DNA of 61,076 bases, the filler included. It is 7 parts of 7 records of this genome, joined end to end, with 100 filler letters (N's around TTAATTAATTAA, not from the genome) between each part and the next. Parts side by side here need not be neighbours in the genome. Positions count along the whole stretch, not along the records: positions 39,983 to 45,595 come from SRR31156797_26140; 6 more parts are not named here. The stretch is one strand, 5' to 3'. Under the pieces are notes generated by a model that was not told the origin of the DNA, did no database searches, and saw only the letters and a program-made list of their open reading frames with translations. Shown here piece by piece: positions 1-50,708 of the stretch; position 1 is the first letter of the stretch; each line of letters begins with the position of its first letter. The position numbers and the translations under genes are program-made.

Positions 1-80
1 CACGAGAGGACTCGTGCGGTAGCGGGGGGTCTTTAATGATTTATTGCTTGAGAACGCGATGCAATCGCGCACTAGCGGGG
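1..80. repeat. Two REP-like palindromic units at the contig edge
   Basis: cacgag-agga-ctcgtg..tagcgggg (1-27) and cgcgat-gca-atcgcg..tagcgggg (55-80): short hairpins, each followed by the same TAGCGGGG tail. Confidence 0.4.
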
Positions 81-8411: not shown

Positions 8412-8511
8412 NNNNNNNNNNNNNNNNNNNNNNNNNNNNNNNNNNNNNNNNNNNNTTAATTAATTAANNNNNNNNNNNNNNNNNNNNNNNNNNNNNNNNN
8501 NNNNNNNNNNN
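8412..8511. other. Artificial contig linker
   Basis: N44-TTAATTAATTAA-N44; stops in all six frames. Confidence 0.98.
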
Positions 8512-14188: not shown

Positions 14189-14288
14189 NNNNNNNNNNNN
14201 NNNNNNNNNNNNNNNNNNNNNNNNNNNNNNNNTTAATTAATTAANNNNNNNNNNNNNNNNNNNNNNNNNNNNNNNNNNNNNNNNNNNN
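14189..14288. other. Artificial contig linker
   Basis: N44-TTAATTAATTAA-N44. Confidence 0.98.
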
Positions 14289-24476: not shown

Positions 24477-24576
24477 NNNNNNNNNNNNNNNNNNNNNNNN
24501 NNNNNNNNNNNNNNNNNNNNTTAATTAATTAANNNNNNNNNNNNNNNNNNNNNNNNNNNNNNNNNNNNNNNNNNNN
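24477..24576. other. Artificial contig linker
   Basis: N44-TTAATTAATTAA-N44. Confidence 0.98.
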
Positions 24577-24772: not shown

Positions 24773-27700
24773 TTATCCTATATTCTCCAGTTTTACGATA
24801 ACTTTTTCAAGGATTTCTGCCGCCGGTTTGAATTGGTACCTGGAAATCAGGCGACCTAACTCTGTTATATCAGACTCTATATGCTTTGGCCATGCCAGGG
24901 TGGTCATCTTTTTTATTCGTTCCTTTGCCGGTTTTGCCTCCCGTTTTTTTACGAACGGGGCAAGGTCATTCAACATCAAGACCAGCTCTTTTTCGGATTT
25001 AATTTCGAGAATTTTCGGAACTGAGGGGGCTTTTACAACTGATCCTGTAAGTTGATCCACCGAAGACAAGACAAGGGGCAACGCCTGGGAAAACAGTGTT
25101 ATCAGGGTGTCGTATTCAGATTGTGCCTTGTCACGGAAGGCTGTTTCCAGGTTGGCTGCTGCCTTTTGCAGGTCTGTCATGCCGATATTGCCGGCCACAC
25201 CTTTGATGGAGTGGGCCAGGCGCCGGGCATCCTCATCCTGCTTCTTTTCAATGAGATCCCTTAAATCCTTGTCCGCGTGTGCATAACTTTGTTTGAATTT
25301 ATCCAGCAGGCCTATATATAGCCTCTCATTTTGATCCAGACGGGAGAGGGCTTGCTTTACTGATATTCCCGGGACGTCGCCCAAGGCGCTTTTTTTGTCT
25401 GATTTTTTGTCAAAGCCCTTTGGCAGGGCTCTGTCTCCAGGCTTGATCCACCGGGAAAGGGCCTGGAACAGCTCTTTTAAATCAATGGGTTTGCTCACAT
25501 GGGAATTCATGCCCGCTGCCAAGGCCTTTGCCCGGTCCCGGGGCATGGCAGAGGCCGTCATGGCTACAATGGGCAGATCCTCGGCTGTTTTGTGCCGCCT
25601 TATTTCACGGGTCGCCTGGTACCCGTCCATCACCGGCATTTGAAGGTCCATGAGGACCAGGTCAAAATTCTGGGACAGTGACATGGAAAGAGCCTCTTTC
25701 CCATTATTTGCAATCCGGACGAAAAAACCGGCACCTTCCAGAATTTCCCGTGCAACCTGCTGGTTGATGTCGTGGTCTTCCACCAGAAGAATGTTGGCCC
25801 CCAGAATGGTTCTGGGAAGTTTTTGTTCCTCAATCGTTTGGCTGGGCAGCAGTTTGCCGCGGCCAAAAGCGCTGAGCAGGCTGTTAAAAAGCTGCGAGGC
25901 GGTGGTGGGTTTGACAATAATACCTTCAATTGCCATCTCCTTTGCCCGGGAACGCACCTGCTCATCTTCCCTGGCGCAGGCCAGGATGATTTTAGGCCGG
26001 CGGTTGGCCGACGTAATCCTCTGGATTTCCCGTATGGTTTCAAAACCGTCCAGGTCAGGCATCTGAAGGTCAACCAGAACAAGTTCATAGGGCTGTTCCG
26101 CCGCAGTTATTATAGAAAGGCCATCTTTTCCGGACTCTGCATCCCGGGCGGTGATGGAAAAATTGTTGAGCATCTGCATAAAGATCTGCCGGGATGCAGG
26201 GTTATCATCAATGACCAGTACCCTGATCCCTGCCACGGCATCATCTAATTCAGGCAGCCTAGGTGTCTCATTGTGACCGATTCCCATGGGCACGGTAAAG
26301 GAGAAGGCACTTCCCTTGCCGGGGGTACTTTCGAGAAATATTTCGCCGCCCATCATCTCGACAATCCGTTTTGAAATGGCAAGGCCCAATCCTGTGCCCC
26401 CGTACTTTCGGGTTGTGGAAGAATCGGCCTGGGTGAAGGCTTTAAATAGTTTTTTCTGCTGTTTGGGTGTCATGCCGATTCCGCTGTCCATAACGCAGAA
26501 ATTTAAGACCATCCGGTCTTTTTGCATCCTAAGCATATCCACCGACACAATGATGTGGCCTTTGTCAGTGAATTTTACTGCATTATTGCCAAGGTTGACC
26601 AGGACCTGATTCAGCCTTAAAGGGTCGCCTTTCAGGGCGTTTGGGATTTGGGGATCCATCCTGAACAATACCTCCAGGTCTTTTTTGGCCGCGGCTTTAA
26701 CCGTGATCAGACCGGCAAGTTTTTCCATGGTTTCATTCAGGCTGAACGCCACAACTTCCATGTCCATCTTGCCGGCTTCAATCTTTGAAAAATCCAGGAT
26801 ATCGTTGATCAGGTTCAGCAGGGATTTGGCAGATGAATCAATTTTGGTCGCATAATCCATCTGTCTTGTATCCAGGCTGGTCTGCATAATCAAATGGGTC
26901 ATGCCGAGGATCGCATTCATGGGGGTACGGATTTCATGGCTCATATTGGCCAGAAATTCACTTTTTGCCTGGTCTGCTGCCATGGCTTTCTGCTTTTCTT
27001 CCTGGGCCTGGGCCACGGCCACGGCCAATTCTTTGTGACTCTCCCTCAAAGAGGCTTCCGCCTTTTTAAGTTTATTGTTGGAAAAAAGAATAATGCCCAG
27101 GATGGTACATGAGACAAGGGTCATTCCCAGAATCCATTTCCACAGAAGGGTCCAGTTGATTTTATGCTCAAACTGCATGCGGACCCATTCATCCCGTATT
27201 TTGTTTTTTTCAGATTCCGGCATGTTCTCCAAAATTTTGTCAAGGATGGAGACCAGCTGGGGCCAATCCTTTCTTACCCCCATGGAGAGCTCAAATTTGT
27301 AGGGGGTCACAGCGGAAATTTTGATGTTGACCAGTCCTGTTTGCTTGGCGCAATAGGTAATGGAGGCAAGGTTTCCCACAAATACATCTGCCCTGTTCTG
27401 GCTGACCCGCTTGAGACCCTCGGTCACTGATTCAACGGATGAAAGTGTAAGATTTTGAAAATTTTTTTTAAGAATTTCCTGGGATACATAGCCATCCACC
27501 ACGGCAATTGTTTTGCCTTCCAGATCTTCAAGTCCGCTGATAAAGGGAAAATTCGTTCCGGCGGCAATGACCATGGGAAAAGATAGATATGGCTTGGTGA
27601 AATTAAGAAATTGTGCCCGCTTGGGACTGGGGGTAATGCAGGGAAACAGGTCAATCTCTTTTTGCCGCCCCTTGCCTAACGCCTGTTGCCAGGTCAGGCC

Positions 27701-30094
27701 GGCCTGGGGTTGCAGGGAGATATTGAGCCGTTTTTCAAAATTTTTGATATATTCGGAGGCCAGCCCTGAATACCCGGATTCCTTGGAATAGAATTCAAAT
27801 GGCGGCCAGGCCGGATCAATCCCCAGTCTTACAACGGAATGGGATTTGAGCCATTGCTTTTCATTGTGTGAAAATAAAGACTGGATTTTCCAGTCTGCAT
27901 CCTCCGGGTCTTCCATCCAGTTCTGGTTGATCAGGCGGTGGGATTCCTGGGAGATATTTTCAATGGCTTTGTTAATGGACGAGACCAGAAGGGGCCAGTC
28001 CTTGCGGATACCAAGGCATAGTCTGGATTCCGGCCAGGGAGCCGGTGCGGCGACTTTGAGCGTATCAATACCCTTTTCATTCAACAGATATTTAATCACC
28101 ATGAGATTTCCGGCATAGGCATGGGTTTCCCCATTCATTACACTCTCAAGGGCTTTGATCGTATTTTTAACCGGTTTGATAATTATTTCAGGATATTGTC
28201 TTTTCAACCTGGACTGTAGAAAATAGCCCTTTTCAATGGCCAGGATTTTTCCGGCCAGATTTTCTATGCCGGAAATGGTCGGTGCCTGTTTTTTAGTCAC
28301 AATGACATAGGGGCAGACAAAATAGGGCGTGCTGAATGACAGCCACTGCTCCCGTTCCTTTTCTTTGACAATACAGGTAATGCCGTTTGCCTTACCCGCT
28401 TTTACCAGGGCTGTCATCTGGTTCCAGGTATAGTCGCTGATGACTTCAAACCGGATGCCCAGCCGGCGTCCGATCAGATTGATATAGTCGGCGCCTACCC
28501 CTTTATACCTGCCGGTTGGATCTGCAAAGCCAATGGGCGGCCAGCTGGCGTCGCCTAAAAGCGGGATCACCTGGTGGGATTTGAGCCAGGTTTTTTCTTC
28601 CGAGGTCAGGATATTGGCCGTGGCGTTGTCCCCAAACCGTCTCAGGGAAGGATCTTTGATCCAGCGCGCTTCGATATCAGCCAGTTCAACATCGGACATG
28701 GCAGCAAGACCTTTGTTCACCGTCTCTAAAAGCGTTGGATTGTTTTTTGCCACTCCCGCATAAATGGACTGGGTCATTTTTCCCTGGTTCAGAAGACCGT
28801 ATGCGCCCTGTTCTCCCCTTCGTTCAAGCTGGGCCGAGACATGGGGCAGTTCTGCAAAAAAAATGTCAAAGGCGCCCAGGGATGCCTCCAAAAGCAGATC
28901 TTGCTCTGTGGGCTGCACCAGAAAAGCTTTGTCGTTTGCCTGTAGATGGTTTGACACGATGGTGTCGGCATTTGTTCCGACAAGGTGTCCCTGTATATCG
29001 GCCAGTGTTTTGGGTGAATTCGGTCCTCGTTTATAAAAGAAGCCGCTTTCCATCCGGTAAAAGGGTTGGGAGAATTCAATGGTGTTTTCCCGCTCCTGGG
29101 ATTTGTACAGCCCTGAATGGATATCAGCCCTCCCGTCTCCAACGGCTTTTATGGATTCTTCCCGGTTGAAAAATCTAAAGTTTATTTTTCTTCCGGTCTT
29201 GGCCGCCCACAACCGCCATACATCCACCAGCATGCCGGACGGATGGCCTGCAGCGCTGATCATGGACATGGGTGGGTACTCATTGCAGCAGGAGATGGTT
29301 AATATATCGGTTTCCAGGTCCTGGGACCTGCCGGTCCATTTACGAATAATTGTGGCTTTGTCTGCCTGGGGGATGGCCTGCATCCCGTTTCGTATAATTT
29401 CGGCCAGGGCGTTATTCCCCCTGCGCACAGCGCAAAGCCAGTCCCCTTCGTAAAGCGGCTCCTGGTCAAAATACCGGTATTGGTTCAATATCCCCTTTTG
29501 TTTGAGGATGGCCAAAGCGATATTGGTATCTTTGACAAATGCAAGAATATCGCCGGACTTAACAGCGTCAAACAGGGACTGGTTATCCGGATATACAGCC
29601 AGTGCGGCATCGGGGATTTTTTGTTTCAGGTAATCAATGGCGGCATCACCCTTAATGATGCCAATGCGAAAGCCCCGCAGATCCCCCAGCCGGTTTACGC
29701 CCAGGATATTTTTTTTAACAAAAAAATGGGTTCTGACATGAACCACTGGCGCTATGAAATCAAGGGTTTTACTTCTTTCCCGGCTGAAAAAACATCCGGC
29801 ATGGACATCGGCATCTCCGTTTTGTACGGCGATAAGGGTCTGGTAAAAGGGGAAAGGTTTGAAAACGACTTTTATTCCGGTTTGCCTGGCCCAATTATGC
29901 CAGATATCCACCACCAGCCCAGCAGGGTTCTTCTTCTGATCCAGGAAATAATAGGGGGTGCTGTCCGTGCCCACAGCCACGACAACCTGTTTGGGGAGAG
30001 AGGCAGCCAAACAGAAGTTTGACGCAAAAAAACAGAATACGAATAAGATGATTAAAATATATTTTAATCCGGCAATGTATCTATTCCAGTGCAT
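24773..30094 (-). CDS. BvgS/EvgS-like hybrid sensor kinase: 4 VFT (SBP family 3) domains, HisKA, HATPase, 2 REC, Hpt
   Basis: Four PP/PY-initiated SBP repeats; [24 protein letters not shown] twice; AHSIKG. Confidence 0.92.
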
Positions 30095-31083: not shown

Positions 31084-31183
31084 NNNNNNNNNNNNNNNNN
31101 NNNNNNNNNNNNNNNNNNNNNNNNNNNTTAATTAATTAANNNNNNNNNNNNNNNNNNNNNNNNNNNNNNNNNNNNNNNNNNNN
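31084..31183. other. Artificial contig linker
   Basis: N44-TTAATTAATTAA-N44. Confidence 0.98.
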
Positions 31184-39882: not shown

Positions 39883-39982
39883 NNNNNNNNNNNNNNNNNN
39901 NNNNNNNNNNNNNNNNNNNNNNNNNNTTAATTAATTAANNNNNNNNNNNNNNNNNNNNNNNNNNNNNNNNNNNNNNNNNNNN
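39883..39982. other. Artificial contig linker
   Basis: N44-TTAATTAATTAA-N44. Confidence 0.98.
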
Positions 39983-40008
39983 GGTTAGCGTAGCGTAACC
40001 CAACCTAC
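39983..40008 (-). repeat. GTAG-type REP element, truncated at the contig end
   Basis: Minus strand GTAGGTTGGGTTACGCTACGCTAACC: GTAG head plus palindrome. Confidence 0.55.
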
Positions 40009-40029
40009 AGGACGCATGCCAAATCCTTT

Positions 40030-40692
40030 CTATTGGTTGTTGAAGGCAGCCCCTTGCCGCTTCAGACTTTCAATGCCGGACACGGCCCTTATCAGGGCTT
40101 TGGAATAATGATCCACTTGTCCGGGGCCGTTATAAATCCTGGCAAACGATCGCCAGTCCTTGTTCCTTATTTCATCAAGCAACCGGTTGGCTTTTATGAA
40201 CCCGAAAAAACCGTCTACCTGCTCCAGGCAGCTATCCTGGAAAGCCAGGGCCATTTCACGGGCGTTTCCATGCCTGGTGGTCAGCCAGTTGAAACCCATG
40301 ATCTGAGGCAGCCCCCAGCTGGTGCTTTCAAGGGCGGCTTCAGGATTTAATTTAAAAGCCCGCGTAAGGTTGCGCCATTCAGACTTTTGACCGTTGCGCC
40401 AAACTTTCACGCGCCGGTCGGTCTTGCGTCTGAATACGTGAGGTTCAAAACGGATTATGACCAGGCCGTCCAAACCATAGGCCCGGCCTGATTCCACGGC
40501 GAATACAGCCAGGGCGGATTCAACCGGCAGACAGGCGCCTTCAGCCTGTACCGCGATCCCTTTTCCGTAATCGTTCCATAAGGAAATAATCCTCCTTTCC
40601 ATGGCCGTCCGTCCCCGCATTCCAATCGGAACGTCCGGCTGTGCAGTAGGCTGACGGGCAGCCCTGAATTCCATGTCGCCGACAGTTTTCAT
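40030..40692 (-). CDS. Phage endolysin, N-acetylmuramidase (DUF3380)
   Basis: AVESG, IRFEPHVF, STSWGLPQIMGFN, WRSFARIYNGP. Confidence 0.88.
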   Translation of the reverse strand: MKTVGDMEFRAARQPTAQPDVPIGMRGRTAMERRIISLWNDYGKGIAVQAEGACLPVESALAVFAVESGRAYGLDGLVIIRFEPHVFRRKTDRRVKVWRNGQKSEWRNLTRAFKLNPEAALESTSWGLPQIMGFNWLTTRHGNAREMALAFQDSCLEQVDGFFGFIKANRLLDEIRNKDWRSFARIYNGPGQVDHYSKALIRAVSGIESLKRQGAAFNNQ

Positions 40693-40707
40693 TTTTCCTC
40701 CCACATT

Positions 40708-40971
40708 TTATTGCCGCTGGCTCAACCAGCCCACGGCCACGGAAAGCAAGGCGGTCAGTATAGCCACGCCCCGGTTGAAAAAGGATTGGTCCTTTTTCAT
40801 AACCGCCTGCTCCTGTTTAATAAGGCCTACTTCGCTGACAAGACCGCCCATGCCGTTGCTTCCATGAACGGTTTTTTTCAATTCCGCATTGTCTTCGCAC
40901 GAATTTTTCAAACGCTCCTTGATAGCTGCCAGGTCGGTCAAAACCTGTTCCTGAAATTGTTTTTCAGTCAT
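40708..40971 (-). CDS. Holin-like small protein (coiled coil plus C-terminal TM)
   Basis: 87 aa with a C-terminal hydrophobic helix, immediately upstream of the endolysin. Confidence 0.55.
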   Translation of the reverse strand: MTEKQFQEQVLTDLAAIKERLKNSCEDNAELKKTVHGSNGMGGLVSEVGLIKQEQAVMKKDQSFFNRGVAILTALLSVAVGWLSQRQ

Positions 40972-40996
40972 AAAAACTCTACAGCCCCTCTAAAAC

Positions 40997-42508
40997 TCAT
41001 TTCAGCTTTGTAATTTTCATCTCCGCATAAATCTCACTCCCCAATCCGGCCGCCCGGCCCTGGCCGTTAGCGGCTTGAGTAGTATTGCATCTATGCTGCA
41101 GTTCAATTGTCGATACGGTATTCAACCTGATCATGCCCGATAAAAACGACCTGTTTTGAACATCGGCCCCGCCGGCCAGTTCGGATGTGCCAAGAAGCAG
41201 GGTTTCCGATGCCGAAACATTCCATAATCTTGTTTTATGCCCCGCAACCCTGTATGCCGGCGCAGATGCTTCAATAAAATACCGGGCGCCTGGAAGGATA
41301 ATCCGCCACGAAACGGGATCTAAAATCGCGCCGGGTATCTGGTCCGCCTGGGCGCTGTCAAGCGCACGCCTTTGCCAATCTCCGCTGGTAAAATTACCGC
41401 CGTTAGTCCCGCTGGAACGCAAATCCTGAACATGCATAATTGCACCGGAAAAACAATTATCCCGGCAGGTAAAGATGCTGTTGTCCTTTATGTTGGCGTT
41501 TGCGCCGGTTTTAAATGCTCCAATCAGTCGATGCCTTGTATAATCCGGTATAGCCGCCCTGAAATTGGCCCCGGTATTAGACGTGTCAAAGCAGACATCC
41601 GCATCTGTCCCGTCATCCTTGGCTACAGCCAATACATAGTATTGTGAATCCGAGCCCAGACTTTCTCCCGGCGCCATGCCTCCGGCGTTGTTTCCAATCG
41701 CCCAGGCAGCGTCGGCGCGTTTGCACAGGTTATTAAATGAAATATCAATCTGGTCATCTGCATCGCGGCACGCGCCGGTTATTTTAATATCGTGATCAGA
41801 GTCCGCGCCCGGCTCCAATATTATGGATGTATAGTCTGTCGGGTATTTTGTTTCGTCTATTTCAAGGGTTGCTTTGACAGCGGCCGCCGAATCGTCATCA
41901 AGTATCGATTCCGCAAAGGCCGACACCTTGGCCGCTTCAAACGCCCCCAGCGTTCCCCTGGCCGAGGACGCCGATTCATCATCAAGGACCGTTCTCATGA
42001 AAGCTGATATACCTACGCCGGCAGGCACACTTGCGGAATTGATCAAACCGTCGCCGGCTGCATTCCAGGCCAGATGCTGTCCCGCGGCAGGCGCGGGCAG
42101 TTCCAATTCTTCAAGGCTTGATGACGCCGGGACCTTGGCCGACCTTGCGACCTCCTCATTGAGCATCTGTGCAATCATGGTCAGCTTGTCAAACGCGTCT
42201 TCGACCACGTCGGCCGGGAAATCGTCATTATCCACCAGGTCCATTTCCTGGGTGGCTTCCACGTTTCGTAGAATCGTCACTTTGTGTCCGATTGCCGGCG
42301 CAACGGTTAATGATATCCGCCCTCCACCGGCGTCTCCGGCGCCGCTTACGGTATAATCGGAGCATAAAGCCAGTTCCGTATCCACCGAATCCAGGTCGGT
42401 CAGGATCACTCTAAGGTCGTCGTCCTTAAGGATTTTAAAGGTATAGTCGTACCCGGTCCCGCCGGCGCTTATGTATTGGTTTCTGGCAATGCTGGAAGAG
42501 ATAGTCAT
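40997..42508 (-). CDS. Phage tail fibre protein
   Basis: N-terminal podovirus-type attachment region (YDYTFKIL, DYTVSG, EDAFDKLTMIAQ); AAGGAG RBS. Confidence 0.8.
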   Translation of the reverse strand: MTISSSIARNQYISAGGTGYDYTFKILKDDDLRVILTDLDSVDTELALCSDYTVSGAGDAGGGRISLTVAPAIGHKVTILRNVEATQEMDLVDNDDFPADVVEDAFDKLTMIAQMLNEEVARSAKVPASSSLEELELPAPAAGQHLAWNAAGDGLINSASVPAGVGISAFMRTVLDDESASSARGTLGAFEAAKVSAFAESILDDDSAAAVKATLEIDETKYPTDYTSIILEPGADSDHDIKITGACRDADDQIDISFNNLCKRADAAWAIGNNAGGMAPGESLGSDSQYYVLAVAKDDGTDADVCFDTSNTGANFRAAIPDYTRHRLIGAFKTGANANIKDNSIFTCRDNCFSGAIMHVQDLRSSGTNGGNFTSGDWQRRALDSAQADQIPGAILDPVSWRIILPGARYFIEASAPAYRVAGHKTRLWNVSASETLLLGTSELAGGADVQNRSFLSGMIRLNTVSTIELQHRCNTTQAANGQGRAAGLGSEIYAEMKITKLK

Positions 42509-42712
42509 AAAAAACTCCTTGGGAAAGAGGGAATAGTGGCCTATATCTCAAATAAATGGCCATCTATTTCATCCAAAGACACCGCCTTATATAATTACTA
42601 TTAGCCATTATTCATGACTTTGACTGGAGCAATATTTAAGGCGTTCGCGTTAATCAATAAGAGGCGGCAGAGCCGCCAAGACATTGCGTTCCCAATTACC
42701 CTCCCTTTCCGC

Positions 42713-42742
42713 TTGATTTTATACCCTGTAAGAATTTATTAT
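42713..42742 (+). promoter_or_regulatory. Promoter of ncRNA copy A
   Basis: TTGATT-18-TATTAT. Confidence 0.6.
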
Positions 42743-42749
42743 ATTCATT

Positions 42750-42845
42750 GGGGTTGTGACGCTGGTCGGTTTTCCGGCGAAGGGCGTTCAGCCTCAGGCT
42801 GTCCAATAAATGCTCCGGTCTGCCCGTCGGACGTCGTCACCCCCC
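42750..42845 (+). ncRNA. Structured RNA family copy A (intergenic, just past the stop of the polyvalent gene)
   Basis: Closing stem gggg..gtgacg/cgtcac.cccc; core gggcg-tt-cagcc-tca-ggctg-tcca...tgccc. Confidence 0.75.
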
Positions 42846-42869
42846 TTATTGAATCCGCGCAGCCGGTTA

Positions 42870-45595
42870 TTATTTTTTATTTTCTATCCGCCTTACTTCA
42901 GCGGACAATTCCCGAAGTTCAAGCAATGTCATTTCTGAAAAGGGATTCTTGCAGGCCGGATCATAGCGGCTCAGTAAATTCAATATCCGTTTCTTGCGCC
43001 CCAAAGACACGCCGGTCGATTGCAGAACCTCCATGATAAATCGCTTGCTCCTGGCGAATTCTTCCCTGCCCCTGGAAAGCACCCTTATTTCAATGGCCAG
43101 TCGTCTCTGGTTATTCCGGCGTTGCCCGGCCTCCTCAAGCCTGCCATCCTGGTAGGCCATCCTGGCCGCCATATCTTCGTCCTTCAAACGCCTTTTCATG
43201 TTATCATTGCAAACAGCTAATTCCTCTTCCGTCCAAACTTCGACCCGCTGTTCCATCGACTTTTTCAGTTCATCAGAACTGCGCATTTGGCGGCTGTCAT
43301 CATTAGTCAAGGCCCGGATTTCCATATCAAGCAATTCAATATATTCATCAGTAATGCCCAAAACTTCAAAATCGATCACGGCCAAATATTCCTCTTCAGC
43401 CGTATCCAAATAGTCCTCCACCAATTCCTTTTTAGAAGGTGTTTCCAAAAGCGCGGCCAACAAATCACTACTATTTTTAAAGCCGTATTCGGTCCGGTAT
43501 TCCTCGGCAAGCAAATCCAATGACAGCTTTCCGTTTTTCCACACCAGGCCCACGCGCTTTTTCGTAATTTCACGAATGGTTTCTTCTTCGTAGTAAAATA
43601 AAAGATCCTCTTCGCGCAGCCCCCCGCGCTTCACAATATCATCCATCAGCACATGCACGGGATGCTGTTTGGCCATTTCCCGGCCCTGGGCGCGCCAGCC
43701 GGCCATTCTGGATCCGACTTCGCATTCCCGTTTTTTCTTCACCGCCTCTTCAGCCGCCCTGCCGGCCCTGGCCGCCATTTCCTTGTATTCATCGGTTTGA
43801 AAAAATGCAAAAATCTCCCGGCCTTGTTCATCGATCCGGAAACCACCCTTAATCCGGCCGCCGCGATCTTGATTCAACTGATCGGATTCGTCAGGCTTTT
43901 TTTCTTGTTTTTTTTCATTTTCGGGAGTATTTTTAAATAGAGGTATATACTGGTGAACTCCATTGAGAGATGGGCGTTCAGCTTCCAGCTGTCCACTAAA
44001 GACGCCGAGTCGCCCGCCGGCCGCCAATGAAATACCTCTAATTTTTTCTTCTACACGGCCGCCGCGTTCTTGACTCAACTCCTCGGATTCTTCAGGCTTT
44101 TTATCTTGAATTGATCCCTGTTCAGATGTAATATCAGAGCTTGAGGGTGTGAGGGGACGCCTGCTAAACCGGGATGGGCGTTCAGCTTTGTGCTGTTCAA
44201 AAAATTGGCCGGTCTGCCCGTCGGTCGTCGCCGAATCACCCTCAATTATTTTTGTTATAATTTTTTTTGTCCCTTTAGGCGCATTCTTAGCTAATGTTTG
44301 ATAAGCAAAATTCTTACTTTTTGCTTTCCAAAATCCGTCTACATAGAGTAATTCGGGGTTTTCCTTGGAGGGTGGAGTCCATGATCCAACAAGGGTGTAA
44401 TATTTTGCGCCAATCTTTTTGATAAAGCCGAAACCTTGACTATTTATGTATTTTTTATTCCTTTTAGCTCTATAAAATTCATCTGCTTCATTAACTACTT
44501 CTCTTACAAAGAGCCAATCCTCGAACGTTAAATCTAAATGCTTCTTCATCTCACTGTATATTTCAAAAGCCGGTATGAGTATTATTGGAGATTCGATTTC
44601 AAGACCACTAATTTGTTTCATTTTTTGGACCATCTCAGGTGAGATTCTACGTCGGCGAAAGCATTTACTCTGATCGAACTCTTTACCTTGCGACATTACC
44701 CATTCAGCAAATTCCGCCTCATCTTCATGGTCGGTCGGTTCCATGGCATAAAGCCATCCGCCTTCCGGAACCTCTTCAGCCCAGTCCGACATCTCCAGGT
44801 CGCGGCGGGCTTCGTCCTCCCGCTTTTTCTTCACCGCTTCTTCAGTCGCCCTGCGGGCCCTGGCCGCCATTTCCTTATATTCATCATATCCGTCGTCAAT
44901 TATCGCCTTGTTTTCAAACAATGGCTGATTATTCGCCAGTTCCCGGGCCGCACGGATTTCATCTTCCGTGGACAACATCCGGTCAAACACACGTCGCATT
45001 TCATCGGAAAGTTCCACATCCAAACTATCCAGGGTTTTATAAATACGCAGAAGCCAATCCCGGAAAAGATCAAAGACGCCCTGCAACTCGGGAATAGGCG
45101 CCCGTCCTTCGGCAAGATATTTTTCAAAACCTCTGGCCCATTTTTCATGCTGAGCTCGAGTCCATTTCTGGCCGGGCTTTGCCCCGACCCAGCGGCAAGC
45201 GGTTTCATAATCCCGCCTCACCCAGTCCGGCGAATTTGGATCATTGGCAAGGTCTTCCAGATCCCGCAGGAAAAAATGCCCGATCTCATGCGGGGCAGTT
45301 GAAAAATCCTTGGCCTGGAAAAATGCCAATATCGCCCGGCCCTGTTCATCAATCCTGAAACCGCCCTTAATCCGGCCCCCGCGCTCTTGGTTCAACTCCT
45401 CGGGTTCGTCAGACTTTTTATCTTGATTTGATCCCTTTTCGGGTGTAATATCTTTATCGGGGAGAAGTGGTGTCCCGGACTCGTTACCGGGAATCGGCCG
45501 TTCATTCATTTTCGAATGTTCAAAAAATCGGGCGGGTTGGCTGTCGTCGGACTGTTTCTCCCCATTGTTTTTTTGTTCAATAAATTCTTTTCTTT
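42870..45595 (-). CDS. Large polyvalent phage protein, 5' truncated (zincin-like HExxH region, putative PBECR-like RNase domain, repeated linkers)
   Basis: Frame stays open from the contig edge (RKEFIEQK...) into the 879-aa ORF; FSTAPHEIGH, HEKWARGFEKYLAEGRAP; position next to the tail fibre. Confidence 0.7.
43905..43933 (+). promoter_or_regulatory. Promoter of ncRNA copy C (intragenic, antisense)
   Basis: TTGTTT-17-TATTTT at the position homologous to the other copies. Confidence 0.5.
43938..44040 (+). ncRNA. Structured RNA family copy C (antisense, inside the CDS)
   Basis: Perfect closing stem tagaggtat/atacctcta then a T-run; core gggcg-tt-cagct-tcc-agctg-tcca...cgccc. Confidence 0.78.
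44106..44134 (+). promoter_or_regulatory. Promoter of ncRNA copy B (intragenic, antisense)
   Basis: TTGAAT-17-TAATAT. Confidence 0.65.
44141..44245 (+). ncRNA. Structured RNA family copy B (antisense, inside the CDS)
   Basis: Perfect closing stem ttgagggtg/caccctcaa then a T-rich tail; core gggcg-tt-cagc-tttgt-gctg-ttca...tgccc. Confidence 0.8.
45423..45451 (+). promoter_or_regulatory. Promoter of ncRNA copy D (intragenic, antisense)
   Basis: TTGATT-17-TAATAT. Confidence 0.65.
45459..45563 (+). ncRNA. Structured RNA family copy D (antisense, inside the CDS)
   Basis: Closing stem ggggagaa/ttctcccc then a T-run; covaried core ggccg-tt-cattc-attttc-gaatg-ttca...tggct. Confidence 0.75.
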
Positions 45596-45695
45596 NNNNN
45601 NNNNNNNNNNNNNNNNNNNNNNNNNNNNNNNNNNNNNNNTTAATTAATTAANNNNNNNNNNNNNNNNNNNNNNNNNNNNNNNNNNNNNNNNNNNN
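45596..45695. other. Artificial contig linker
   Basis: N44-TTAATTAATTAA-N44. Confidence 0.98.
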
Positions 45696-46200: not shown

Positions 46201-47586
46201 TTATTGCCATCCGCCACCCAAGGCTTTATACAGTTGAACAATCGAAACAAGCTCATCGCGTTTCGCCTGGTTAAGGCTCAGTTCTGCATTTAAAAGACTT
46301 CGCTGTGCGTCGAGCAAGTCGAGATAGCCAATTACTCCGTTTAGATACTGGACTACTCCCAAACGTTGGTATTCGCGTGCTGCGCGTACCAGCTTACGCT
46401 GCGCCGAGGTAATTTCTTTGGTTTTTTCAACAGCAAAAATTGCACTGTTCACCTCGTGAAAAGCTTTTAAAACCGTATTCTGATAGGCATAAATCTGCTC
46501 TTCGTAAAAGGCTTCAGCAATGCGTTGTTCATTTTTAAGTTTACCCGCCTGAATCAATGGTGCAATAACATCGCCCGCCACAAACCAAAATGGCGATTTT
46601 AACAGGTCTTTTAAATCGTCATTTTTCCCACCAAACTCTGCAGTTAAAGCAATACGCGGGTAACGGTTGGTAACGGCTACTCCAACATCAGCATTGGAAG
46701 CAATCAGGTTTTGTTCGGCCTGCATAATGTCGGGGCGCTTCAATAACAAATCAGAAGGAAGGCCAACCGGAATCTCTTCGGGCATTTTCTGGTCAGACAA
46801 AATACTTCCCCGTTTAAACGAATGATCGTAGGAACCAATAAGCGTTGCCAACTGGTTCTCAATTATTCTTATTTCCCTTTCAACCGATGGAGCAAGTGTT
46901 CTGGTATTTTCCAGTTCAACCAAAGCTTGTTGCACCGATGTTTCGGATGTAAGTCCCCCTTCAAATCGCAGGTTGGCAATTCGCGATCCTTCCTCACGCG
47001 ATTTTATCGTTTTGTATATTATTTGTAGTTCATCATCCAGCGCTATCAAATTAAAGTAAGCTTCGGCAACTTCGGCCACAATACTTAGCTGCACAGCCCG
47101 TTGTGCTTCTACCGATGCCAGATAATCGGCTATTGCCGCCTCTTTTCCCCAACGAATATTTCCCCATAAATCAAGCTCCCATTCCAAAGTCGCCAAAAGA
47201 TTATATTCATAACTTTCCTCCTTTGCATCTCCTCCAAAATTTTCCATTTCTTTTTCAGCATGAAAGTCACCGATAACCTGAGGATACAGACCGGCAGAAG
47301 CTATTTGTTTTGAAGCCCAAAACTGCTTTAGCCTTGTTGTGGCAATTTTCAGATCGTTATTGTTATTAAATGCTGTTTCAATAAGATCCTGCAATACTGT
47401 ATCTCCGTATAGTTCCCACCACGCCATATCGCCAAGCGACATTGAATCGATCTTTGCCGTATCGAGGCTGACAGGCAACTGTAATTCGGGTCGGGTATAA
47501 ACAGAACCCACCTTACAGGAAAATGTGCTTAACAAAATCCAAAAAGCAAGAAACTGAATAATATGTATTAAGCGAATATTCTTCAT
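46201..47586 (-). CDS. RND outer membrane factor lipoprotein (NodT/OprM-like)
   Basis: Lipobox FSC, WELDLWG, RPDIMQAE, LYKALGGGW. Confidence 0.93.
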   Translation of the reverse strand: MKNIRLIHIIQFLAFWILLSTFSCKVGSVYTRPELQLPVSLDTAKIDSMSLGDMAWWELYGDTVLQDLIETAFNNNNDLKIATTRLKQFWASKQIASAGLYPQVIGDFHAEKEMENFGGDAKEESYEYNLLATLEWELDLWGNIRWGKEAAIADYLASVEAQRAVQLSIVAEVAEAYFNLIALDDELQIIYKTIKSREEGSRIANLRFEGGLTSETSVQQALVELENTRTLAPSVEREIRIIENQLATLIGSYDHSFKRGSILSDQKMPEEIPVGLPSDLLLKRPDIMQAEQNLIASNADVGVAVTNRYPRIALTAEFGGKNDDLKDLLKSPFWFVAGDVIAPLIQAGKLKNEQRIAEAFYEEQIYAYQNTVLKAFHEVNSAIFAVEKTKEITSAQRKLVRAAREYQRLGVVQYLNGVIGYLDLLDAQRSLLNAELSLNQAKRDELVSIVQLYKALGGGWQ

Positions 47587-50500
47587 TATTTTTCCTCTGA
47601 AAGTTCAACTTTAGTGTTCTTTTGTTTTTGTGGTTTTAGCTTGTAAATCATCACAAAAAAGAACGGTACCAAAACAATACCAACAGTTAAGGCAATCAAC
47701 ATTCCGAAAAACACGCCAGTACCAATCGAGTGTCGTCCTGCCGAGCCGGGACCAGTAGCCAGTACCAATGGTAACATCCCCAGAACAAAAGCCAACGAAG
47801 TCATTACAATTGGTCGAAAACGCAAACGCCCGGCTTTTATGGCAGCTTCAACCAGGTCGCATCCATTATCTACTTCAACTTTGGCAAATTCCACTATTAA
47901 TATGGCATTTTTAGCCGCTAAACCAATTAAGGTTACCAAACCAATCTGGAAATAAATATTGTTATCCAGTCCGGTTATCCAAATGCCTAAGAAGGCACCA
48001 AAAGCAGCCACCGGTAGCGATAATAAAACAGCCGCCGGAACCAACCAGCTTTCATATTGGGCGGCCAGAAAAAGAAACACAAAAAGAAAAACCAGGGCCA
48101 TGATATACCCCGTTTGTCCTCCGGCCTTTTTCTCTTGGTAGGACAAGCCACTCCAATCGTAACCAATGTTATCGGGTAACCGGGTTCTAATTATTTCTTC
48201 CATAGCAGCCATTGCATCTCCCGAACTATAGCCGCCAGCCGGGGTACCCCGAATTACTGCCGATGAAAACATATTAAATCGTTTAATACTTCCGGGGCCG
48301 GTTGTATACGATGTTTCTCCCAGTGCGGTTAGTGGCACCATGGTATCGTCGGCACCACGAACAAAAAACAGTCCCAGCATATTCTGGTTGGCACGGAAAG
48401 GTTCTTCTGCCTGAATATATACTTTGTAAATACGGTTAAACATGTTAAAGTCGTTAACATAAACCGATCCTAAAAAAGCTTTCATACTGGAAAAAACATC
48501 GGCCAATGGAATCCCCAAAAGCTTTACACGATCGCGGTTAACATCGAAATACAATTGTGGAATATCGGCTTGCAAACTCGATGAAACACCTTCTAAAGCT
48601 TCGTGTCCGGCAGCATACAACAGCAAACTATCGGTTGCTGCCACAAGGTCTTCCCAGGTGGCTCCCGATTTGGCCTGAAGCTGCAATTCAAATCCCCCCG
48701 AGGTTCCAAGGCCTGGAATTACCGGTGGTTTATTAAAGAAAAAATTGGCCTCAGGTATCTCATGAAATGCCCTGCCGGCCTCATCAATAACAGCCTGTAC
48801 ATTCATTCCTTTATCCCGTTCTCCCCAGGGTTTTAAAGTAACCGTAAGCTCTGCCCTTCCCTGGTTTACACCTGTTCTCGGGCCTGTACCGGCAATATGC
48901 TGCACGTAGTCGACTGCCGGGTGCGCTTTAAAATATTCCACCACCTTATCGGTAATTATACGCGTACGTTCGAGTGTAGCCCCATCGTTTAATTCAATCT
49001 CCAATACAAAATATCCCTGGTCTTCTTCGGGAATAAAAGAGGTTGGAATCACCTTCGATAAAACAAAAATGAAAACGAGCACCATGCCAAAACCGGCAAT
49101 TATCCGTTTTGGTTTTTTAATGGCCCCTCTTAATAAGCTTATGTATTTGTTATTTCCGGCTTGCAGCCAGGCATTAATCTTTCGGAATACTACATTTGTT
49201 CCATTAGCCGGCTTTAAAATAATAGCACACATTGCCGGACTTAAGGTTAAAGCAACAAGGGTTGATATTAACACAGAAACCACAATGGTTACAGAAAATT
49301 GCCGGTACAGTTCTCCGGTTATTCCTGATAAAAAACTAACCGGCACAAACACTGCTGCAAGTACCATGGAAGTTGCAATAAGTGCCCCCGATAAATTTTT
49401 CATAGCTTTATGTGTGGCTTCACGTGCACTCAGTTTCTCGGTTCTCATGAGGTATTCCACGCTTTCCACCACCACAATGGCATCGTCAACCACAATACCA
49501 ATAGACAAAATTAAACCCAGTAGTGTTAACATATTTAATGAAAAGCCCATTGCAAGCATAAATCCAAAAGTTCCGATCAGGGAAATAGGGACGGCAATTA
49601 GTGGGATAATGGTTGAACGCCAGTTTTGAAGCGATAAAAACACCACCAACACCACAAGCAACAAAGCCTGAAAAAGGGTGGAATAAACCTCCTTTATTGA
49701 GGCTTTAATATATGCAGTCATGTCGAAAGGAATCTGATAATCGAGACCTTCAGGAAAATTCTGACTTAATTCTGCCATGGTTGCTTTTATATTATCGGCT
49801 ACTTCAACGGCATTTGCTCCAGGCAACATATAAATGGCCAACATTGCTGCATTCCCTCCGTTTATTCCACTTTCCTGTGTATACGATGATGCTTCAAGCG
49901 AAACCCGTGCAACATCTTTCATTCGAATGATGGTACCATCGTTGGAGGCCCTAACCACAATTTGTTCAAATTCAGCAGCGGTCTCCAACCTTCCTTTTGT
50001 TGAAATAGGCAGGGTAATGTCAAGGTCATTCATGGGTTGCAAGCCCAGCTCACCCGCCGCCGATTCCCGGTTTTGATCTTTAAGGGCATCCTGCAAATCT
50101 TTTACTGTCAGGCCAAAACTTGCCAACCTGTCGGGCATCACCCAAATACGCATACCGTAGTAACGACTACCACGGTTCGATACCCGACCTACCCCGGGAA
50201 TTCTTCGAAGTACATCCAATACATTAATAGTTGCAAAATTACTCAGGTAAATCTCATCATATTTCCCATCTTCGGCCACCAAACAAATGGTAAGCAATTG
50301 ACTTGCCGATTGTTTTTCAACAGATAATCCATTCTGAACAACTTCGGCCGGTAGTCGCGATTCGGCCAGTTTAACCCTGTTTTGAATTTCAACTGCTGCC
50401 AAATCAGGATCAACACCAACATCAAAGGTTACGTTTATACTTATTCCCCCCGAGTTTGAACTACTCGACTCCATATAAATCATCCCTGGGGTTCCGTTTA

Positions 50501-50708
50501 ATTCCTGCTCGATGGGAGTTGAAACTGCCTGCGAAACAGTTACGGCACTTGCTCCGGGATACGATCCACTAATTTTAACAACAGGCGGTGTAATTTTCGG
50601 ATACTGATCAATGGGTAACAGCATTAAACCAATAACACCGATAATAACCAGTAATATTGAGATAACCGAAGAAAATACCGGGCGTTCAATAAAAAATCCA
50701 GGTTTCAT
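47586..50708 (-). CDS. RND efflux permease (HAE1 family)
   Basis: FIERPVFS, GIVVDDAIVVVE, AAKNAILIVEFA, RFRPIVMTS. Confidence 0.96.
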   Translation of the reverse strand: MKPGFFIERPVFSSVISILLVIIGVIGLMLLPIDQYPKITPPVVKISGSYPGASAVTVSQAVSTPIEQELNGTPGMIYMESSSSNSGGISINVTFDVGVDPDLAAVEIQNRVKLAESRLPAEVVQNGLSVEKQSASQLLTICLVAEDGKYDEIYLSNFATINVLDVLRRIPGVGRVSNRGSRYYGMRIWVMPDRLASFGLTVKDLQDALKDQNRESAAGELGLQPMNDLDITLPISTKGRLETAAEFEQIVVRASNDGTIIRMKDVARVSLEASSYTQESGINGGNAAMLAIYMLPGANAVEVADNIKATMAELSQNFPEGLDYQIPFDMTAYIKASIKEVYSTLFQALLLVVLVVFLSLQNWRSTIIPLIAVPISLIGTFGFMLAMGFSLNMLTLLGLILSIGIVVDDAIVVVESVEYLMRTEKLSAREATHKAMKNLSGALIATSMVLAAVFVPVSFLSGITGELYRQFSVTIVVSVLISTLVALTLSPAMCAIILKPANGTNVVFRKINAWLQAGNNKYISLLRGAIKKPKRIIAGFGMVLVFIFVLSKVIPTSFIPEEDQGYFVLEIELNDGATLERTRIITDKVVEYFKAHPAVDYVQHIAGTGPRTGVNQGRAELTVTLKPWGERDKGMNVQAVIDEAGRAFHEIPEANFFFNKPPVIPGLGTSGGFELQLQAKSGATWEDLVAATDSLLLYAAGHEALEGVSSSLQADIPQLYFDVNRDRVKLLGIPLADVFSSMKAFLGSVYVNDFNMFNRIYKVYIQAEEPFRANQNMLGLFFVRGADDTMVPLTALGETSYTTGPGSIKRFNMFSSAVIRGTPAGGYSSGDAMAAMEEIIRTRLPDNIGYDWSGLSYQEKKAGGQTGYIMALVFLFVFLFLAAQYESWLVPAAVLLSLPVAAFGAFLGIWITGLDNNIYFQIGLVTLIGLAAKNAILIVEFAKVEVDNGCDLVEAAIKAGRLRFRPIVMTSLAFVLGMLPLVLATGPGSAGRHSIGTGVFFGMLIALTVGIVLVPFFFVMIYKLKPQKQKNTKVELSEEK

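Follow-up and report, generated by a model that had tools for sequence, protein, structure and literature searches.

Candidate small-RNA units in four copies within and beside a Bbp10-type virion gene of a phage contig

Several bacteriophages encode antisense or immunity RNAs of about 70-100 nt (c4 of P1 and P7, P4 CI, lambda OOP, P22 sar) in which a closing stem is combined with hairpins. These RNAs are made by the host polymerase and pair with phage mRNA, and the specificity of c4 between related phages depends on a few variable bases in its loops. They are single-copy and located in immunity regions, not within the frame of a structural gene. The sibling small RNA (sRNA) families and the PeSL cassettes of T4-type phages are repeated modules consisting of a promoter plus a structure, which recombine between conserved parts and sit between genes. 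Here we describe four related units found in a DNA stretch of 61,076 nt (the window), where they lie in and beside the gene of a large virion protein on a 5.6-kb phage contig (window positions 39983-45595, SRR31156797_26140).

Another kind of element with which the units can be compared are the Rickettsia palindromic elements (RPEs) and other intragenic MITEs. According to PMC10969869 these are hairpin repeats of 100-150 bp, which are inserted in frame in protein genes, add a conserved peptide, share terminal inverted repeats between copies and are scattered over unrelated genes. The units are likewise hairpin-forming, in frame (three copies) and equipped with a shared peptide core; they differ from those elements in having copy-specific end stems and no target duplications, and in being all in or beside one gene. 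To the c4-type RNAs they are similar in small size and in their predicted closing stem and hairpins, but they are four-copy and inside a structural-gene frame, and no Rfam model matched them at E<=10. Unlike the PeSL-type cassettes they overlie coding sequence and keep the frame open. We know of no counterpart to four core-sharing paralogues with copy-specific stems and a translated opposite strand. What is new here are the four self-contained cassettes over a structural-gene frame, their copy-specific compensated stems and the swapping of units. Our preferred reading, held tentatively and a little short of being probable, is that the units are paralogous plus-strand small-RNA genes, antisense over the linker-coding parts of a Bbp10-type virion gene.

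Four units with a common core and a common fold

Every gene of the phage contig (5613 nt) is on the minus strand. The large virion protein gene (Bbp10-type, polyvalent-kind; 42870-45595) runs off the contig end, which leaves an open reading frame (ORF) of 907 readable codons, or 879 codons when counted from the first ATG. Unit A (42750-42845, 96 nt) starts the series on the plus strand and lies 24 nt beyond the stop of this ORF. Units C (43938-44040, 103 nt), B (44141-44245, 105 nt) and D (45459-45563, 105 nt), also on the plus strand, are in frame with it and cover residues 518-553, 450-484 and 11-45 of the 907 readable codons, respectively. An earlier note on this DNA had listed the same four plus-strand units, three in the minus-strand ORF and one past its stop, and all were present with these positions. 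The units flank every domain block of the gene, in the order D, zincin plus middle domain, B and C, C-terminal domain, A, and are contained in 2.9 kb. The unit frame is free of stop codons in all four copies.

The units share a core of 45-58 nt. The core pattern CGTTCA-N9-12-TGTYCA..AAA.....CG....G.C.G.CG had four matches in the 61-kb window, all on the plus strand and all in the units, and no match in 100 shuffles. A covariance model made from unit B only recovered exactly the four units, on the plus strand, and at E<=10 it had no other match in the window. Model scores were 138 bits for B, 50.8 bits for C, 44.5 bits for A (match 42748-42846) and 27.6 bits for D. Neither the pattern nor the covariance model picked up a unit on any other contig of the window.

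All units are closed by a stem, P1, whose sequence is specific to the copy: GGGG..GTGACG/CGTCAC.CCCC in A, TAGAGGTAT/ATACCTCTA in C, TTGAGGGTG/CACCCTCAA in B and GGGGAGAA/TTCTCCCC in D. Perfect pairing extends over 9 pairs in both C and B, over 8 in D and over 6 in A, where four more G-C pairs follow past a TT bulge. When the inner 8 nt of the 5' arms were compared pairwise, only 1-4 of the 8 positions were identical in the six comparisons; the claim that P1 is unlike between copies yet always paired was thus borne out. For comparison, 125 of 5000 random placements in the same contig, placements on the units included, reached at least 8 pairs. Inside P1 we found an additional helix, P1b (GACG/CGTC in A and B, GGTG/CGCC in C, GTCC/GGAC in D), which pairs in four of four copies and has two compensated positions.

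In the model-fitted alignment of the four units, which favours the structure, 91.8% of the 97 pair cells pair, compared with 78.5% in shuffles, and pairs changed on both sides number 12, compared with 4.6; neither value was reached in any of 500 shuffles. Controls in which the partner was slid were 35-60% paired. The proposed covariation in P4 was confirmed: CAGCC/GGCTG of unit A is matched in unit D by CATTC/GAATG, a compensated change. The proposed covariation in P3 held in part. P3 is 100% paired with one double change, and a mutually exclusive hairpin, P5 (GCCGG/TCGGT around a TGCCC loop), is equally supported, being 95% paired with two double changes. RNAalifold prefers P5 on the plus strand; P3 and P5 are indistinguishable at the level of these four sequences. 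The variable hairpin P2 (GTCGG/CCGGC in A) is present in each copy, as predicted, but the model could not align it and it is 77.8% paired. The z-scores for folding of single units were modest, -1.6 to -3.0 on the plus strand and -1.1 to -3.0 on the minus strand.

Upstream of each of the three units in the ORF, as read on the plus strand, lies a linker repeat of 80 nt (family D1). The copy upstream of B (44056-44135) served as reference, and those upstream of C (43855-43934) and D (45373-45452) are 76% and 86% identical to it; on the antisense strand the repeat encodes an acidic, lysine-rich protein linker. Unit A shares approximately the last 50 nt of the repeat only.

Some further features of the units were noted. 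The open frame of unit A is the -1 frame of the large ORF (42748-42890, minus strand), which is open for 43 codons from an AAAAAA run at the last codons of the ORF to a TGA at the end of the unit, and it may be what is left of a copy that was once in frame, or possibly a frameshift extension. At the contig edge after unit D (45564-45595) the sequence TGTTCAATAAAT repeats the loop motif of the units (cf. TGTCCAATAAAT in unit A) and encodes EFIEQ, resembling QFFEQ; a fifth unit may be represented here by a fragment. The A-rich loops of A (42803-42808), B (44198-44204) and D (45521-45527) are complementary to the tail behind P1 (CAATAA/TTATTG in A, CAAAAAA/TTTTTTG in B and D), with a tail A in unit A opposite the T of its loop; the agreement in unit C is poor. 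The complementarity may reflect pairing of loop and tail, or may have arisen by chance from sequence of low complexity. A possible homology of the A and B tails was dropped because only a low-complexity alignment was obtained.

Nucleotide-level constraint and exchange of units

Sequence comparison indicates that the constraint on the units acts on the nucleic acid and not on the peptide. This follows from the distribution of differences over codon positions, from homologues without the motif, from the location of unit A outside the ORF and from the conservation of unit B in a close relative. The cores of B and C differ at 17 positions, 6, 8 and 3 of which fall on codon positions 1, 2 and 3, and there is no excess at the third position. 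The translated units do share a short peptide core, F..Q..(A)ERP, with invariant residues G, F, E-R-P and P. The motif occurs in 1 of the 150 best homologues, and a profile of the translated unit modules retrieved only this one homologue, P0001, from 5.8 billion proteins. Bbp10 of phage BPP-1 aligns from the zincin start only, with nothing at the unit position. Unit A keeps every helix though it is outside the ORF; its frame is still open over the 43 codons, so its exit from the ORF may be recent. The earlier note had argued for selection on RNA structure over the peptide. The preference for nucleic acid over peptide is upheld by these data, the preference for RNA over DNA is not.

P0001 comes from a Logan contig of sequencing run X2 and is 85% identical overall to the large protein. 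Run X1 is probably the source sample and was not counted as an independent occurrence, and a third run, X3, contributed no contig to the comparison. Over unit B and the promoter-like stretch 49 of 50 residues are identical, and four of the next eight linker residues differ. In unit B alone the identity is 34 of 35 residues, and the peptide over the promoter-like site is unchanged. The DNA of X2 has 6 differences in 192 nt in the segment 44056-44247, compared with 83 in 989 nt (8.4%) in the adjacent domain. Judged from P0001, at least five of the six differences belong either to the linker or to the inner end of P1, and the promoter-like flank plus unit B has about one change in 153 nt. The single change in unit B (D to N) implies, from protein rather than DNA, a C>T substitution at 44237, which would turn the innermost G-C pair of P1 into G-U on the plus strand and into A-C on the minus strand.

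The arrangement of the units is different in the relative. In X2 unit B and its linker adjoin the C-terminal domain and a C-like unit follows 20 other letters later, which means that the order is permuted. At the place of D there is a unit in which a different 35-nt 5' part is joined to a C-like core, and the flanking 938 nt are 95% identical. Beside the units, 262 letters are found in place of 466, and the neighbouring domains are 92-95% identical. The X2 contigs break in the unit core, as expected of a repeat. Between the two phages at least five P1/P2 versions can be told apart, and the comparison indicates that whole units are exchanged between conserved flanks.

No other occurrence of the family was found. 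With Rfam 15, whose models cover self-cleaving ribozymes, riboswitches, Y and 6S RNAs and phage RNAs, there were no matches in the window at the gathering thresholds, and at E<=10 the region 42650-45596 gave seven weak matches, none of them inside a unit; one of these, STnc150 (E 3.1), touches 7 nt of unit C. The novelty assumed in the earlier note thus stood. The strict core pattern had 11 matching loci in IMG/VR, all of which were chance matches in G+C-rich coding DNA, devoid of the A-rich loop and of the remaining unit. A looser family pattern had no match in IMG/VR, three loci in the JGI metagenomes, representing one sequence which lacks P4 and the GG, and three loci in the GTDB genomes, all of these being chance matches as well. 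Protein-guided searches of IMG/VR, using the whole protein or the alignment to P0001, yielded no confirmed match, and a word-index protein search at similar lengths gave no relative. The large protein had no exact entry in the protein cluster table, and blastn of 42700-45595 against GenBank phages gave no match. When a four-unit model was run over 80 homologous-gene loci, BPP-1 and the window, only the four units were recovered (next best E 0.36). Full-text searching of the literature, which is not proof of absence, turned up no description of elements of this kind in structural genes of phages. The hidden family described in the earlier note is therefore a real four-copy family, but narrower than implied, being confined in these searches to this phage and one close relative. 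As an RNA-like family it is new by every library searched, whereas its kind, be it a phage antisense RNA or an in-frame hairpin repeat, is known.

Two kinds of known RNA were also considered. ARAGORN predicted no tRNA or tmRNA gene in 39983-45595, and inspection by eye revealed no CUGANGA, as in a hammerhead-type core, in the units. Introns spliced from the mRNA were rejected since the unit frame is open in all copies, which argues for translation, and -1 frameshift signals before the units were rejected because no consistent slippery site or spacing was seen by eye.

A putative promoter-RNA cassette and the alternatives to it

According to the preferred reading each unit would belong to a cassette. 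This would begin with a sigma-70-like promoter (TTGnnT, 17-18 nt, TAnnnT) ending 4-7 nt before P1 and continue with an RNA of about 100 nt, whose ends would be paired by P1 and P1b around the variable P2 and the core with P4 and P3/P5. In three of the four copies a U-run directly past P1 is a possible transcription end. The cassette of unit A would overlie the first bases past the ORF stop. The sense strand would read through the three other cassettes as a disordered-looking linker peptide, so that the same DNA would serve both strands, and recombination in the conserved linker and promoter flanks would cause the cassettes to multiply, to be rearranged and to be exchanged among related phages. 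We infer transcription, strand and function from the DNA. As to function, our best guess, by analogy with other structured antisense RNAs of phages, is that the RNAs would control the large late-gene mRNA in antisense. To its own site each RNA would be fully complementary, and between an RNA and the core of another site the complementarity would be 71-81% (A, B, C).

The promoter-like sites, all on the plus strand, are TTGATT-18-TATTAT for unit A (42713-42742, 9/12 matches), TTGTTT-17-TATTTT for C (43905-43933, 7/12), TTGAAT-17-TAATAT for B (44106-44134, 8/12) and TTGATT-17-TAATAT for D (45423-45451, 8/12), the last three counted manually. They end 7, 4, 6 and 7 nt before P1, respectively. A sigma-70 scan for TTGACA-16..18-TATAAT, requiring at least 9 of 12 matches with A2 and T6 in the -10 hexamer, accepted the site of unit A only. 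The motif TTGnnn-16..19-TAnnnT occurs at eight positions on the plus strand and at one on the minus strand of the contig; the eight include the four sites that end 4-7 nt ahead of a P1. T-rich tails had been noticed behind B, C and D, and in each of them (B, 44246-44268, whose antisense strand codes for KKIITKII; C, 44041-44052; D, 45564-45575; all plus strand) nine of the first 12 nt past P1 are T, compared with five in A; on the minus strand the corresponding counts are 4-5. On the plus strand the pair cells include six G-U and one A-C. This agrees with the earlier statement that the G-U pairs work on the plus strand only, but the count is biased, because the structure was drawn on that strand. 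The model structure, summed over the four units, is 16 kcal/mol better on the plus strand. Taken together, the signals for the strand are weak. Among the sequencing runs listed as containing the stretch none was an RNA run, a result that speaks neither for nor against transcription. A small plus-strand peptide was rejected as product, an ATG-led ORF being seen by eye only in B and C, where it is unconserved.

Several observations weigh against small-RNA genes. Only four full sequences are available, all paralogues within one gene, with pair counts taken from an alignment fitted to the model, and the family was found nowhere beyond two phages, which limits the test of covariation to these four. 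The sites resembling promoters at B, D and C are below the threshold of the scan, the flanks are AT-rich, and a minus-strand promoter-like site (44273-44245) also abuts unit B. The T-runs are lysine codons of the sense strand and protein composition could therefore explain them, and unit A is without an adjacent T-run. A terminator scan (G+C-rich hairpin, loop of 3-8, then a T-run) listed no site at the units, because P1 encloses about 85 nt and not a small loop. The excess of G-U is subject to the bias mentioned, the structure conservation index is 0.75 on the plus and 0.70 on the minus strand, and the z-scores are alike on both strands. Recent exchange, rather than purifying selection, could account for the high conservation that unit B shows in the relative. 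Finally, the open unit frame in all four copies also fits a translated in-frame repeat.

Such a repeat, i.e. an RPE-like palindromic element, selfish or neutral, which spreads by recombination in tolerant linkers and has no RNA product, its hairpin belonging to the spreading DNA itself, is in our judgement rather unlikely. It would account for the three in-frame copies, the stop-free frame of all four and the shared peptide F..Q..AERP, since insertion in frame and addition of a conserved peptide are the hallmarks of RPEs, elements of about 150 bp found in unrelated ORFs according to PMC10969869. Unit number, order and identity also differ between the two close phages, as would be expected of it. 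The ends, however, speak against it: an end recognized by a transposase would be conserved, and the terminal inverted repeats agree at only 1-4 of 8 positions. Target-site duplications are not consistent either, the longest flanking direct repeats being 3, 6 (ATTTTT, of low complexity), 0 and 2 nt, all copies are within 2.9 kb of one gene with none elsewhere in the window, and the compensated P1, P1b and P4 together with the nearly unchanged unit B and flank ask for selection on pairing. The position of the units at the borders of all domain blocks would be accounted for if they were DNA or sense-mRNA elements, serving as recombination points in domain shuffling or pacing translation. The homologues are domain-shuffled polyvalent proteins, the relative in X2 has B and C permuted, another unit at the place of D and 262 instead of 466 letters between neighbours that are 92-95% identical, and with 83 of 97 pair cells Watson-Crick the helices could function on either strand or in DNA. 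But plain homologous recombination needs neither compensated helices nor a conserved core, no recombinase is visible in the contig, which is only 5.6 kb long, the 80 homologous-gene loci in other phages are without unit-like sequence (best E 0.36), and the six G-U cells are A-C mismatches on the sense strand. We consider such border elements unlikely.

At the level of the protein, the units could be linker or processing motifs, cut for example by the embedded zincin-like domain, with the pairing being incidental. The invariant G, F, E-R-P and P fit this, as does the order of segments: a linker comes after every unit in the ORF and, in the case of D and C, a zincin-type start GGRIKGGF comes after the linker, which behind B is truncated to GGRVEEK. 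Yet selection on a peptide could not produce closing stems that occupy one position, differ in all four copies and are perfect over 8-10 pairs, the B/C differences (6, 8 and 3) do not favour third positions, unit A is outside the ORF and the motif is missing from 149 of the 150 best homologues. This explanation is very improbable and close to refuted by the P1 statistics. A bolder form of the small-RNA reading would see the cassettes as exchangeable dual-coding modules, each a complete gene with promoter, P1-closed RNA and terminator, in the disordered linkers of an ejected polyvalent protein, the core acting as decoy for a host or phage factor or a defence signal, the fast-changing P1 and P2 arms determining specificity between competing related phages and the units being swapped like alleles, of which the two phages already show five P1/P2 versions; we give it little credence, somewhat less than the border elements. 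That the truth lies in an explanation other than those considered here seems about as unlikely as the border elements. The units as small-RNA genes were ranked first because this explanation alone uses the promoter-like site at a fixed distance, the paired ends, the T-runs, the G-U pairs and the frozen block of promoter and unit.

If the units are transcribed, they would constitute a family of structured small-RNA genes with promoters of their own, packed antisense in the frame of a structural gene. This would be an extreme case of dual coding, such genes would be invisible to ordinary annotation, and the domain shuffling of polyvalent proteins would be tied to RNA-gene cassettes. If they are not, we are aware of no earlier case of an RPE-like hairpin repeat lying in frame in a structural gene of a phage, and the copy-specific compensated end stems would remain the odd feature of such a repeat. 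In either case four paralogues and one set of natural variants make a compact system for separating selection at the RNA level from selection at the protein level.

The virion gene and its surroundings

The large protein contains a zincin-like HEIGH region at residues ~63-257. Its own 907 residues had no Pfam match; it matches phrog_9880 (5.2e-57) and, via the zincin-like HExxH region, Bbp10 of BPP-1 (33% identity over 240 residues, E 7e-32). Bbp10 is a protein of 2052 residues whose gene likewise precedes a tail-fibre gene, and the large gene described here is syntenic and homologous with it. An exhaustive protein search gave 9294 relatives of the large protein at E<=0.001. The name polyvalent-protein gene, used in the earlier note, is fair by homology because the domains ART-PolyVal (3.8e-24), LPD22 (3.9e-11) and SLT (4.2e-28) were found in homologues. 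When the segment past unit C (43718-43934) was compared with 44810-44885 and 45307-45447, both edges of the zincin-type block turned out to be repeated (GGRIKGGFRIDEQGR.I.AFFQ and DEYKEMAARA..EEAVKKKRE; 82% and 89% at the DNA level). The ~140 residues that separate these edges are missing from the segment, which is thus a duplicated block with a deleted core.

The other genes of the phage contig, all on the minus strand, are an endolysin gene (40030-40704), a tail-fibre gene with a podovirus-type N-terminus (40997-42508) and a small ORF, listed between these two in the gene order. The window as a whole consists of seven separate contigs, unrelated to each other and chained by N44-TTAATTAATTAA-N44 fillers (8412-8511, 14189-14288, 24477-24576, 31084-31183, 39883-39982 and 45596-45695); their G+C content ranges from 35% to 62%. 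The OEP/AcrB genes at 46201-50708 belong to another contig and are uninformative on the phage contig. A further contig carries an ORF of 1773 residues (24773-30094, minus strand), which matches PHROGs of unknown function (phrog_20458, 3.9e-159). It represents a second phage-like giant protein in the same bin and contains no units.

Between unit A and the tail-fibre gene there is a stretch of about 36 nt (42657-42693) with the hairpin GGCGGC-AGA-GCCGCC. The window contains a single copy, and no identical sequence was present in IMG/VR. Versions carrying 1-4 changes are spread over many other contigs of runs X1 and X2, with a summed depth of 1444 (X1) and 248 (X2) compared with ~50 per contig. 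In the copies elsewhere it is followed by a second hairpin, CGTTCCC...GGGAACG, in the loose-end consensus. The stretch may be a dispersed regulatory or REP-like repeat of phage or host.

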